The notes beneath the pieces were generated by a model. The model saw only the letters and a program-made list of their open reading frames with translations, made no database searches and was not told the origin of the DNA. This document shows, piece by piece, positions 3,605 to 24,242 of a stretch of DNA of 25,610 nucleotides. How positions within the stretch are numbered: position 1 is the stretch's first letter; each line of letters begins with the position of its first letter. A program made the translations under genes and the position numbers. Source of the DNA: a virus (lineage: Duplodnaviria; Heunggongvirae; Uroviricota; Caudoviricetes); the IMG/VR virus record IMGVR_UViG_2718217884_000005, positions 1 to 25,610 of that record; one strand, 5' to 3'.

Positions 3605-3652
3605 AATGGTGCCGATAATAGGAGTCGAACCTACGACCTTCGCATTACGAAT
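3605..3652. repeat. prophage attachment-site repeat: 48-bp copy of the thrW 3' end
   Basis: aatggtgccgataataggagtcgaacctacgaccttcgcattacgaat is identical to 24165..24212 inside thrW; identity ends at 3653. Confidence 0.85.
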
Positions 3653-3879
3653 CATAAGAATCCGCTTCTAATTCAAAGTATTACCCCATCAACACTGCGC
3701 TCACACGTCCCACCACATCAAAACATGTAAAGCCTTGCAAGCCATTGTGAGGCCTTATGTGTCTCAGTTTTGTCCCACTACGACCTGCACAGAAAATAAG
3801 AAAATAGCGGTGATATCAAACAGTACAGAAGTCTTTTTTCTTTCAAATGGAGAAACTGATTAACCCGTTTAATTGTACT

Positions 3880-4135
3880 CCTCATGGGTAATCAGCAGTC
3901 CTCAGAGTAATGGAATGGCAGAAAGGTTCGTGAAAACGATGAAGGAAGACTACATCGCGTTCATGCCGAAACCGAATGTAAGAACGGCATTGCATAATCT
4001 TGCAGTGGCGATCGAACATTACAATGAAAACCATCCGCACAGTGCGTTGGGTTATCGCTCTCCGCGAGAATATCGACGTCAGCGGGTAACGTTAACTTAA
4101 GATACACCCCCTGTCTGGAAATAAGGGGGCAAGAA
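3880..4135 (+). pseudogene. IS3-family (IS2-like) transposase C-terminal remnant with right-end sequence
   Basis: translation [20 protein letters not shown]...[14 protein letters not shown] is the conserved C-terminus of IS2/IS3 OrfB; 4108-4130 resembles the IS2 terminal sequence; no N-terminal part present. Confidence 0.6.
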
Positions 4136-4141
4136 CAATGA

Positions 4142-4894
4142 TCAGATTCCCTGGTGAGTAAGAATTTTACTTTCTGAACTCCTCTGAGAGTATTGACTTG
4201 GAGAAACACCAAAATAACGTCTAAATACATAAGTAAAGTATGAGATACTGGCATAACCACAGACCTTAGCTACTTTACTAATAGGATAACAACGAGTGCT
4301 GAGTAAATATTCAGCCATTTGCATCCTCTCATCAAGTATGATCTTACTGAATGATACCCCCTCTTCTTTCAATTTCCTCTTTAGTAAACTTTCGCTGAGA
4401 TATAATCTTGATGATATATCCTTAAGACGCCATGGTGCAGATAAATCCGTATGAATAATCGTTTTAACTTTAGCCCCTGTGCTTTTCAAACATCCAAACA
4501 GAAATACTCCAAATTGTTTTTCAGAAGAAAATGCAGAGAGACATGTAAAAGCAATAGACTCATCAAAAATTTCTATGTATTCAGCACAGTGATTAGCCCA
4601 ACTAATTAATCCTTTAATTAAACTGAAGTCAGCAAAGTTTATTTTTAAATAAGATGGATATTCCCTACAATCAGAAATATCCCTTAAGTTATTAGCTTTC
4701 AAATAGCGACTAATAAACTCAGCGCCAAAATCCGCCACTATCACTCTTTCAGGATATGTCAGGAAAAAATCTCTAGAGCTAGAGTCGACAAGTACAGATG
4801 AACCTCTCTCCAGAAACACACTCTCTTTTCCGAAATAAACATCAAAGGACTCCAAAATCAATATAACTGAACATGTAGTTGCCATATCATCCAC
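4142..4894 (-). CDS. AraC-family transcriptional regulator
   Basis: 250 aa with a C-terminal AraC-type double HTH (KVAKVCGYASISYFTYVFRRYFGVSPSQY); visibly AT-rich. Confidence 0.8.
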   Translation of the reverse strand: MDDMATTCSVILILESFDVYFGKESVFLERGSSVLVDSSSRDFFLTYPERVIVADFGAEFISRYLKANNLRDISDCREYPSYLKINFADFSLIKGLISWANHCAEYIEIFDESIAFTCLSAFSSEKQFGVFLFGCLKSTGAKVKTIIHTDLSAPWRLKDISSRLYLSESLLKRKLKEEGVSFSKIILDERMQMAEYLLSTRCYPISKVAKVCGYASISYFTYVFRRYFGVSPSQYSQRSSESKILTHQGI

Positions 4895-5138
4895 CCAATT
4901 TAACTGAAACCAGGATGAAGTATATGCATATAAAGTTCACTTTGCCAAACTTCAGTATAAAAAACCACATAAAAAATAGGGTGTGATAAAAAACACCGTA
5001 AAAATAAAGCAAAGGATTATAAATTCCGTTACAGTTACAAATGATACTTAAGAAACAATTCCTTAGAAAACCTTATTTACAGCCAATAAGTAAGACACTT
5101 ATATGATATCAAGTTTTCATAAAACATAACTAGGCTAA

Positions 5139-6333
5139 GGAAGGTGCGAATAAGCAGGTCATTTCTTCCCAAGCTGACTCGCTGATTAAAATTTCGCGGA
5201 TCTGGGCCGATTTTTTTCCCGCAAACACATCGAATCAGCCTATTTAGGCTATTTTTTCCACCATTTCTGGCGTTATTTCCGGTTTTTACTGAGATCTCTC
5301 CCCTGACGTATCATTTGGTCCACCCGAAACAGGTTGGCCAGGGTGAATAACATCGCCAGTTGGTTATCGTTTTTCAGCAGCCCCTTGTATCTGGCTTTCA
5401 CGAAGCCGAACTGCCGCTTGATGATGCGAAACGGGTGCTCCACCTTGGCACGGATGCTGGCTTTCATGTATTCGATATTGATAGCCGTTTTGTTCTTGCG
5501 CGGATGCTGCTTCAAGGTTTTTACCTTGCCGGGACGCTCGGCGATCAGCCAGTCCACATACACCTCGGCCAGCTCCTCGCGCTGTGGCGCTCCTTGGTAG
5601 CCGGCATCGGCTGAGACAAATTGCTCCTCTCCATGAAGCAGATTACCCAGCTGATTGAGGTCATGCTCGTTGGCCGCGGTGGTGACTAGGCTGTGGGTCA
5701 GGCCACTCTTGGCATCGACACCAATGTGGGCCTTCATGCCAAAGTGCCACTGATTGCCTTTCTTGGTCTGATGCATCTCCGGATCGCGTTGCTGCTCTTT
5801 GTTCTTGGTAGAGCTGGGTGCCTCAATGATGGTGGCATCCACCAAAGTGCCTTGGGTCATCATGACGCCTGCTTCGGCCAGCCAGCGATTGATGGTCTTG
5901 AACAATTGACGGGCCAGTTGATGCTGCTCGAGCAGGTGGCGGAAATTCATGATGGTGGTGCGATCCGGCAGGGCGCTATCCAGGGATAATCGGGCAAACA
6001 GGCGCATGGAGGCGATTTCGTACAGGGCATCTTCCATGGCACCGTCGCTCAGGTTGTACCAATGCTGCATGCAGTGAATACGCAGCATGATCTCCAGCGG
6101 ATAGGGCCGTCGGCCATTGCCCGCCTTGGGATAAAACGGCTCGATGACAGCGGTCATATTCTGCCATGGCAGAATCTGCTCCATGCGGGAGAGGAAAATC
6201 TCTTTTCAGGTCTGACGGCGCTTAGTACTGAATTCACTATCGGCGAAGGTGAGTTGATGGCTCATGATGTCCCTCTGGGATGCGCTCCGGATGAATATGA
6301 TGATCTCATATCAGGAACTTGTTCGCACCTTCC
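5139..6333 (-). mobile_element. IS5 insertion sequence, complete 1195 bp
   Basis: terminal inverted repeats ggaaggtgcgaataag at 5139 and cttgttcgcaccttcc ending at 6333; internal transposase matches recalled IS5. Confidence 0.9.
5273..6184 (-). CDS. insH: IS5 transposase
   Basis: 303-aa translation matches recalled InsH nearly residue for residue; the usual N-terminal extension (MSHQLTFADSEF...) is present upstream but interrupted by an in-frame TGA. Confidence 0.9.
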
Positions 6334-6536
6334 CATAGCCAATAAGCATGTTAAATCCCCCTGGTAAAAGCAGGAATGATGCCATTTGCTTGTTATTTCT
6401 TCATTTTCATAAACGTTCATTTAATATTGTAATTTTTCAAACACTCCCTATAAATGCACTATCTGTACAATTCAACAAATTAACCTTATACTACTCACAT
6501 TATTTTTGTACACATTAAAACCAGCAAATACAACAT

Positions 6537-22464: not shown

Positions 22465-22511
22465 TGGCCTCAAAGCAGCAAATTTCAACATCGTCCAACT
22501 GAGGTGTAAAA

Positions 22512-22790
22512 ATGTTCAGAATCATTTTTCCTAACACCTGGTACGTCGACCACCACGGCACTCCCTGCAAAATCCTGCGTTCTACCCACAACAAAGTTCA
22601 CTACATCCGAAAAGGCAGAACATGTATCGCCAGCATGTTCCGCTTTAATCATGACTTTGAACCTGTGAATAAAGCTGATGCAGATCGGATAGCAGAAGAG
22701 ATCGAAACGGCAGAACACATTAAGAAGTTACGTGACATGCGTTCAAAAAGCAGAGGTAACCATGGAATCATACAGCCTCACACTCGATGA
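22512..22790 (+). CDS. hypothetical protein (92 aa) upstream of xis
   Basis: ORF with AGGTG-type RBS; 3' end overlaps the xis start; no family recognised. Confidence 0.35.
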   Translation: MFRIIFPNTWYVDHHGTPCKILRSTHNKVHYIRKGRTCIASMFRFNHDFEPVNKADADRIAEEIETAEHIKKLRDMRSKSRGNHGIIQPHTR

Positions 22791-23112
22791 GGCCTGTCAG
22801 TTTCTCAAGATATCCAGACCTACCGCTACCAACTGGATACGAACAGGCCGCCTACAGGCAACACGCAAAGACCCCACTAAACTAAAATCTCCTTACCTCA
22901 CAACACGACAAGCCTGCATTGCGGCGCTTCAGTCTCCGCTGCATACTGTCCAGGTGAGCGCGGGTGATGGCATAACAGAGGAAAGAAAATGTCACTCTTC
23001 CGCAGAGGTGAAATATGGTACGCCAGTTTCACATTGCCGAACGGTAAAAGATTTAAACAGTCTCTTGGAACAAAGGACAAAAGGCAGGCGACAGAACTCC
23101 ATGACAAGCTAA
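22762..23112 (+). CDS. xis: excisionase (P22-type Xis)
   Basis: 116-aa translation from [31 protein letters not shown] closely matches recalled P22 Xis; 3' end overlaps int. Confidence 0.8.
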
Positions 23113-24152
23113 AGGCTGAAGCATGGCGGGTCAGCAAACTTGGTGAAATACCTGATATAACGTTCGAGGAAGCGTGTGTCAGGTGGCTTGAAGAGAAAGC
23201 ACATAAAAAATCACTGGACGATGACAAAAGCCGGATCGGATTCTGGCTTCAACATTTCGCAGGAATGCAACTAAGAGACATTACTGAATCAAAAATTTAT
23301 TCAGCAATGCAGAAAATGACGAACCGGCGTAATGAGGAAAACTGGAAACTCAGGGCAGAAGCATGCAGAAAAAAAGGGAAACCTGTTCCAGAATACACGC
23401 CAAAACCAGCGTCCGTTGCAACGAAGGCTACGCATCTTTCATTTATAAAGGCCCTACTAAGAGCCGCAGAGCGTGAATGGAAAATGCTGGATAAGGCACC
23501 AATTATTAAAGTGCCTCAACCAAAGAATAAACGGATCCGCTGGCTGGAGCCCCATGAAGCACAAAGGCTGATTGATGAATGTCCGGAGCCATTAAAGTCT
23601 GTTGTTGAATTTGCACTGGCAACAGGCTTAAGACGCTCGAACATCATCAACCTTGAATGGCAACAAATAGACATGCAGCGCCGGGTGGCATGGATAAACC
23701 CGGAAGAGAGTAAATCAAACCGCGCAATTGGCGTTGCGCTGAATGATACTGCATGTCGCGTATTGAAAAAACAAATCGGGAATCATCACCGTTGGGTATT
23801 TGTGTACAAGGAAAGCTGTACCAAACCAGACGGAACGAAAGCGCCAACGGTCAGGAAGATGCGGTATGACGCAAACACAGCCTGGAAAGCGGCGCTGAGA
23901 CGGGCTGGTATTGATGATTTCAGATTTCACGACTTGAGACACACCTGGGCAAGCTGGCTGGTTCAAGCCGGAGTCCCGTTGTCAGTGTTACAGGAAATGG
24001 GAGGCTGGGAGTCTATCGAAATGGTTCGTCGATATGCTCACCTTGCACCTAATCACCTTACCGAACACGCACGGCAAATAGACTCGATCCTGAACCCATC
24101 GGTCCCAAATTTGTCCCAGTCAAAAAATAAGGAAGGTACTAATGATGTGTAA
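22989..24152 (+). CDS. int: tyrosine integrase (P22-type, thrW-specific)
   Basis: 387-aa translation closely matches recalled P22 Int ([10 protein letters not shown]...[11 protein letters not shown]); gene ends 12 bp before the thrW-derived repeat. Confidence 0.95.
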
Positions 24153-24164
24153 CTTATTGATTTA

Positions 24165-24212
24165 AATGGTGCCGATAATAGGAGTCGAACCTACGACCTT
24201 CGCATTACGAAT
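24165..24212. repeat. attachment-site repeat within thrW, partner of 3605..3652
   Basis: 48-bp perfect direct repeat. Confidence 0.85.
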
Positions 24213-24242
24213 GCGCTGCTCTACCAACTGAGCTATATCGGC
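24167..24242 (-). tRNA. thrW: tRNA-Thr (anticodon CGU)
   Basis: reverse complement reads GCCGATATAGCTCAGTTGGTAGAGCAGCGCATTCGTAATGCGAAGGTCGTAGGTTCGACTCCTATTATCGGCACCA, 76 nt with CGT anticodon and CCA end. Confidence 0.9.

Follow-up and report, generated by a model that had tools for sequence, protein, structure and literature searches.

An apparent tandem array of the island CP4-6 and a cryptic lambdoid prophage at the tRNA gene thrW

The thrW locus and its attachment sites

The window analysed here is a 25,610-nucleotide (nt) stretch of DNA catalogued as a virus of the Caudoviricetes (IMG/VR record IMGVR_UViG_2718217884_000005); along it lie one end of the Escherichia coli island CP4-6, a short copy of a tRNA 3' end at 3605-3652, a lambdoid element of 20.6 kb, and a second copy of that 3' end at 24165-24212 within the tRNA gene thrW, that is, two different elements in series with a tRNA 3'-end copy between them. 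The thrW gene (24167-24242, minus strand) encodes tRNA-Thr(CGU) and is the single tRNA in the window; ARAGORN and Rfam agree that it is intact (71.8 bits for the Rfam tRNA family), it matches the thrW region of K-12, and the Rfam scan of the window returned nothing besides it. Beyond thrW the chromosomal flank holds proA (24357-25610, minus strand), a 417 amino acid (aa) open reading frame (ORF) that carries the annotation proA in every matching genome.

The 3' end of thrW takes part in an exact 48 bp direct repeat (3605-3652 and 24165-24212) whose identity ends at both edges; the copies start 20,560 bp apart, and if mismatches are allowed the similarity covers 64 nt at 94% (3589-3652 versus 24149-24212). 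All but two of these bases (3607-3652 and 24167-24212, 46 of 48) are the reverse complement of the published attachment (att) core ATTCGTAATGCGAAGGTCGTAGGTTCGACTCCTATTATCGGCACCA, which is common to the phages SfI, SfII, SfV, SfX, and P22 (PMC3636060). The integrase gene int (22989-24152, plus strand) stops 12 bp short of the right copy; the left copy has the CP4-6 toxin gene ykfI (2884-3225) about 380 bp to its left. The native flank, the CP4-6 arm, and the lambdoid arm resemble one another in the sequence directly 3' of the tRNA (TTAAAATCAA...GTTAC).

The int product is a full-length tyrosine integrase of 387 aa (Pfam Phage_integrase) with 99.7% aa identity to the Int of SfIV, 89.7% to that of P22, and 100% to as much of SfII Int as is available. 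The excisionase gene xis lies upstream (22732-23112, plus strand) and is a full-length match to PHROG 2907 (117/117 profile positions). Integration at thrW beside proA is documented both for P22-like phages (PMC2629481) and for the Sf serotype-converting phages (PMC3636060); with an orthologous Int, the 46 bp core at both prophage ends, an excisionase upstream of int, and a known attP that can be rebuilt from its ends, the integration module carries every sequence-level hallmark of this P22/SfIV thrW group. The P22-like character is confined to the integration module; the early region (Q, nin, O/P, cI, gam/bet/exo) resembles that of lambda for the most part.

The two copies allow both products of a reverse reaction to be rebuilt in silico. 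If 3653-24212 is removed and the sequence up to 3652 is joined to 24213, the resulting empty site is 100% identical over 993 bp to the ykfI-thrW-proA junction of K-12; if 23701-24212 is joined to 3653 onward, the resulting attP aligns unbroken with phage SfIV over 637 bp at 98.6%, from the end of int through the core and 125 bp into the opposite arm. Since both products match real reference sequences, 3605-3652 and 24165-24212 (both minus strand) are taken to be the attL and attR of a site-specific integration, and this double match is considered the strongest in silico evidence for that assignment. The putative attL is the displaced copy of the thrW 3' end, its outer flank being the K-12 sequence directly downstream of thrW, and is adjoined by the phage P arm of attP (3653-3777, no strand assigned), which is delimited by the unbroken SfIV alignment; the putative attR is the core within the intact tRNA plus 2 bp. 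The original prediction, which had read from the sequence an intact tRNA-Thr beside a P22-type int, a perfect 48 bp copy of its 3' end, and a lambdoid element integrated into thrW, is borne out on each of these points.

The same prediction had placed the left copy at the junction with a CP4-type toxin-antitoxin island, which can now be named more closely, as far as its sequence tells, as CP4-6 itself. Positions 1-3652 match CP4-6 of K-12 MG1655 at 98.99% identity over 3,652 bp, and the thrW-proximal end (1-3604, plus strand) has the yafY-to-ykfI sequence and gene order of that island: yafY (30-443), ykfB (466-933), yafX (1347-1805), the RadC-like ykfG (1821-2297), ykfH (2306-2527), the antitoxin gene yafW (2546-2863), and ykfI; the Pfam families in this interval are YfjS_YafY, Antirestrict, RadC, DUF987, CbeA_antitoxin, and CbtA_toxin. 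A layout in which the 48 bp copy is the distal repeat of a CP4-57-style island to the left was considered and rejected, because the copy faces the wrong way for it and because K-12 has this CP4-6 end directly touching thrW. In K-12, CP4-6 is bounded by a direct repeat of approximately 59 bp that holds the whole 46 bp core and 11 bp downstream; the distal repeat of MG1655, beside intF (locus positions 37708-37766), thus includes the P22/SfIV att core, and CP4-6 strains therefore offer phages of the P22/SfIV group two candidate attB sites.

Junctions were counted in 5,426 complete E. coli genomes, mostly long-read. The comparison with genomes that have CP4-6 directly at thrW, suggested along with the original prediction, gives an uninterrupted CP4-6/ykfI-thrW-proA junction in 368 of them, that of K-12 being identical to the reconstruction; the CP4-6/attL/lambdoid junction is present in 11, strains EcPF16 and KFu022 included, and the attR junction (this int type beside thrW) in 1,219. 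None of the complete genomes covers at least 80% of the window in one place. Strain EcPF16, the closest relative, has lost the intF end of its CP4-6-like island and features insertion sequence (IS) 1 at the truncation point; strain N9 has the same lambdoid left end next to a different island. In both EcPF16 and KFu022 the CP4-6-like island adjoining the same attL junction carries a locus of heat resistance (clpK, sHSP20-GI, yfdX1/2, hdeD-GI, trx-GI, kefB-GI, and psiE-GI) upstream of the region matching 1-3604.

Gene content and decay of the lambdoid element

The attL side of the element opens with a fragment of an IS3-family transposase (3873-4100, plus strand; Pfam rve_3 only, E 8e-17) and an AraC-family regulator (4142-4894, minus strand; Pfam HTH_AraC and HTH_18), which is YdeO/GadX-like, with NCBIfam YdeO below its cutoff, and is regarded as a moron of the phage b-region. 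The functional phage ev099 has the same IS3 fragment beside its attP, together with an AraC gene to which the present one is 98.9% identical at the nt level; the left end is therefore considered genuine phage b-region. An ISKpn26-like element of the IS5 family follows (5136-6333, minus strand; DDE_Tnp_1 and DUF772; 90.9% identity to K-12 IS5); its 16 bp terminal inverted repeats are intact (5139-5154 and 6318-6333), and a nonsense codon interrupts its transposase at position 20 of the translation. The flanks of this element, CTAA and CATA, form no target-site duplication, a sign that one side may have been rearranged through the IS; strain N9 has different sequence to the right of it.

The cargo gene at 6537-7601 (plus strand; Pfam Acyl_transf_3) encodes a membrane protein of the Acyltransferase_3 family and has a low GC content of about 0.34. 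It sits between the IS and the tail fibre assembly gene tfa, which is the slot that genes for O-antigen modification occupy in Sf phages. With no close homologue among 50,697 phage records and no NCBIfam match, its identification as an Sf6-type Oac was rejected.

Rightward of tfa (7633-7998, minus strand; Pfam Caudo_TAP) the tail fibre gene is reduced to a C-terminal fragment (7995-8626, minus strand; Pfam Phage_fiber_2) that ends at a deletion junction. At position 8626 this fragment is fused to approximately codon 47 of a GH24 endolysin gene, of which only the N-terminal ~47 codons are left (8626-8766, minus strand); the alignment to the intact thrW prophage of AR_452 begins at this same position, inside its endolysin gene, and the Rz, terminase, head, and tail genes are lost. 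The junction shows 1-3 bp of microhomology; EcPF16 retains 312 bp more at the late-gene deletion junction, and tail-fibre homology to EcPF16 stops at 8626. The holin gene (8753-9070, minus strand; Pfam Phage_holin_3_3) is the one whole member of the lysis cassette, which has the truncated endolysin and no Rz; among the window ORFs there are no terminase, head, or tail genes, just the tail-fibre fragment and tfa.

The region from the late antiterminator gene Q (9380-10069, minus strand; Pfam Phage_antiter_Q, E 6e-94) to exo is more complete. The nin region (10203-12670, minus strand) contains rusA (10203-10565), ybcO (10562-10891), a ninB-like gene (11015-11470), and genes for two proteins of unknown function, assigned through Pfam, PHROGs, and the annotation of AR_452. 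The replication genes P (14744-15445) and O (15442-16461) are on the minus strand (Pfam Phage_lambda_P and Phage_rep_O); five 18 bp iterons (TTTACCTGATTCGGGTAA-like) within O, at 15908-16020, are predicted to mark the replication origin. The gene ren is split by a 1,293 bp insertion (13366-14658, plus strand) that carries a gene for a 249 aa outer-membrane beta-barrel protein (13504-14253; Pfam OMP_b-brl); the insertion is missing at the exact point from AR_452 and from the lambdoid phage PhiR30_1, and it is present in only 5 of the complete E. coli genomes, where ren is annotated as two pieces. The insertion junctions share just a short TGTTAC microhomology; the beta-barrel protein matches the Rickettsia Adr adhesin family below the cutoff, and a hairpin terminator follows its gene.

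The immunity region (16458-19185), delineated by Pfam matches and a family of operator repeats, is 96% identical at the nt level to that of PhiR30_1. It holds a YdaT-like gene (16458-17003, minus strand), a cro-like gene (17028-17261, minus strand), the operator OR (17288-17329), cI (17309-18058, plus strand; the true start is probably 17369), a DUF7946/7947 gene (18125-18988, plus strand), and the operator OL (19144-19185); the operator-like 17 bp repeats form two pairs, OR and OL, that flank the cI/DUF7946 block. No N-like antiterminator ORF is seen between OL and kil. The genes kil, gam (19748-20044), bet (20050-20835), and exo (20832-21512) occupy 19438-21512 on the plus strand, as assigned by PHROGs and by the annotations of AR_452 and PhiR30_1.

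The DUF7946/DUF7947 protein, of 287 aa, lies between cI and OL in the slot that holds rexAB in lambda; in relatives this slot carries a HipA-like kinase with DUF3037, DUF6414 with TIR, DUF4041, or PD-lambda-1. Homologues are found across the Enterobacterales, all unnamed, and the literature search returned no paper on DUF7946. Its AlphaFold2 model (predicted local distance difference test, pLDDT, of 74) is helical in its N-terminal domain and OB-fold-like in its C-terminal domain; Foldseek gives weak OB-fold/IF1-like matches to the C-terminal domain, none with E <= 0.001, and there is no sequence match in the PDB. One weak PADLOC match was obtained, to PDC-S42 (E 1.5e-4). The gene is considered a candidate exclusion or defence gene.

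Of the parts of a functional lambdoid phage, the element thus features cI/cro with operators, O/P with iterons, and Q, and lacks a complete lysis cassette and the terminase, head, and tail genes. The intact prophage of AR_452 shares its right half at 96-99% and continues from the endolysin gene into Rz, terminase, and head genes; set beside this relative, the missing virion genes and the incomplete lysis cassette indicate a cryptic prophage, in which int, xis, both att cores, cI/cro, O/P/ori, Q, and the red genes appear to be intact. It is predicted to be incapable of lysing the cell or of building virions. The word prophage in the original prediction therefore stands in so far as an SfIV-type integrated element is meant, and needs to be narrowed to a defective remnant that is expected to form no particles.

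Formation of the array and order of arrival

It is considered very probable that two integrative elements stand in tandem at thrW, one of them a lambdoid phage with an SfIV/SfII-type (P22-family) module that integrated into the 3' end of the tRNA gene and later decayed. A temperate phage with an int-xis-attP of this type, whose attP holds a 46 bp copy of the tRNA end, would have recombined with the 3' end of thrW; integration would rebuild an intact tRNA beside int (attR) and leave the displaced tRNA end (attL) at the opposite end of the prophage, where it would directly abut the ykfI end of CP4-6 that touches thrW in K-12. CP4-6 would probably have been resident first and then been shifted 20.56 kb from the tRNA. 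During decay a deletion would have joined endolysin codon ~47 to the tail-fibre C-terminus, the ISKpn26-like element would have entered beside the AraC gene, and the 1.3 kb outer-membrane-protein cassette would have split ren.

Three observations weigh against this reading or parts of it. CP4-6 is seen at its thrW-proximal end alone, the far end (intF and, by K-12, a third thrW copy) lying beyond the window. In a strain with an empty site, the lambdoid attL would offer 57 of the 59 bp of the CP4-6 repeat, and a later entry of CP4-6 into the distal copy could therefore give the same map. Lastly, the left block up to about 9600 is joined in EcPF16 to a different proximal half and integrase, so that the element may combine parts of more than one phage.

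This last observation leads to a tentative alternative, in which the element is a composite remnant of at least two successive thrW phages; its Q-to-int half would have been replaced by recombination, or by tandem integration and collapse, and the block from attL to the holin would be the older fossil. From 1016 to about 9600 the window is approximately 99.7% identical to EcPF16, late-gene deletion junction included; mismatches cluster from 9652, homology ends at 10116, and beyond this EcPF16 has a different early region and integrase. Since both share the deletion junction, the late genes were deleted before the proximal halves diverged, and the tRNA-proximal half has been replaced in at least one lineage. 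The thrW of EcPF16 (locus positions 32125-32200) has two differences from 24167-24242, located in opposite arms of the T-stem and predicted to change a T-A pair to G-C with pairing restored; it adjoins a different integrase gene (about 77% nt identity over a short stretch), and the distal attL keeps the standard core. The 3' half of this tRNA was evidently rewritten by the attP of a different phage. KFu022 shares with the window just 1-8014 and 22762-25610. The counterweight is that attL with its P arm and attR with int both fit a single SfIV-type attP, and one phage with one deletion or decay is therefore enough; EcPF16 may be the sole lineage in which the proximal half was replaced.

Carried further, and as speculation that is more doubtful than not, the distal block (attL, AraC, IS5, acyltransferase, tfa, deletion junction, holin, and the start of Q) would be a long-lived fossil, with the tRNA-proximal half repeatedly overwritten as new thrW phages stack beside it and the tandem pair collapses by recombination; the remnant would still be able to excise and replicate. 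If true, such stacking and collapse would swap integrases, immunity regions, the variable slot downstream of cI, and even the thrW T-stem.

As to the order of arrival, the array of CP4-6 and the lambdoid phage has the same map whichever came first. An unlikely alternative is that the lambdoid phage integrated first at an unoccupied thrW and that CP4-6 entered later, via IntF, into the partial tRNA copy at the distal attL; the CP4-6 repeat of about 59 bp does include the 46 bp core and 11 bp that make the lambdoid attL so close a match, and the distal partner does vary, as the different island beside the lambdoid left end in N9 indicates. Set against this, CP4-6 abuts an intact thrW, with a junction identical to the reconstruction, in the 368 genomes mentioned versus 11 tandem ones, and the partial site would be without the tRNA's 5' half, which may have to serve as a B arm. 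In the sole experimental case, infection with SfX and then SfI resulted in tandem prophages at thrW, the SfI newcomer having settled between proA and SfX by using the att site at that SfX end (PMC3306764). Arrival of CP4-6 first is considered more likely because genomes with CP4-6 alone and the identical junction outnumber the tandem genomes, and because the experimental newcomer lies on the proA/thrW side. Of the original claim that an older island was pushed 20.6 kb away, the distance (20,560 bp) is upheld; the word older is what we infer, since the reverse order gives the same map. That the repeat is a chance match or an assembly artefact, with no real tandem, is exceedingly improbable and was rejected: nothing was found in its support, an exact 48 bp match is far beyond chance in 25.6 kb, and the empty junction as well as both the attL and attR junctions occur independently in the complete, mostly long-read genomes counted above.

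Comparison with known systems

The analysis is chiefly of value for annotation, since the limits of two mobile elements at a classic hotspot are now fixed; it also provides a clean teaching example in which attL and attR yield both attB and attP, each of which has a real reference counterpart. Compared with K-12, the CP4-6 end has the same yafY-to-ykfI content and an identical reconstructed junction to thrW; unlike in K-12, where the island touches thrW, it is located 20.56 kb away.

The defective lambdoid prophages of E. coli K-12, DLP12, Rac, and Qin, are IS-rich lambda-like remnants without morphogenesis genes. The present element resembles them in having kept int/xis, regulatory, nin/Q, and partial lysis genes while its morphogenesis genes are gone; it differs from them in its thrW attachment site, in that both att cores are perfect, and in that its immunity and replication modules are apparently complete.

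With the Shigella flexneri phages SfIV, SfII, SfI, SfV, and SfX and the Salmonella phage P22 the element shares the identical 46 bp att core and the thrW site beside proA; int and the cargo genes are also at opposite ends of the prophage, and the attP arms are continuous with SfIV. Unlike the Sf phages, it has no gtrABC or oac conversion cassette beside attL, where an IS3 fragment, an AraC regulator, an IS5-family element, and an unrelated acyltransferase are found instead; all virion genes are deleted, and the early region is like those of lambda and PhiR30_1 rather than that of SfIV.

thrW is listed among the most frequently targeted E. coli tRNA hotspots (PMC7545054), and the arrangement is an ordinary example of such a hotspot, its tandem kind having already been demonstrated experimentally at this site. 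The full-text literature search returned no paper on CP4-6 in tandem at thrW; the arrangement differs from that kind solely in the pairing of a P4-type-integrase island with a defective lambdoid prophage. As in the tandem lysogens of SfX and SfI, in which the newcomer is found beside proA/thrW, two elements are stacked at one thrW with an att copy between them; unlike in those lysogens, the distal partner here is CP4-6, with its P4-type integrase, and not a second phage with the same Int, and the proximal partner is defective.

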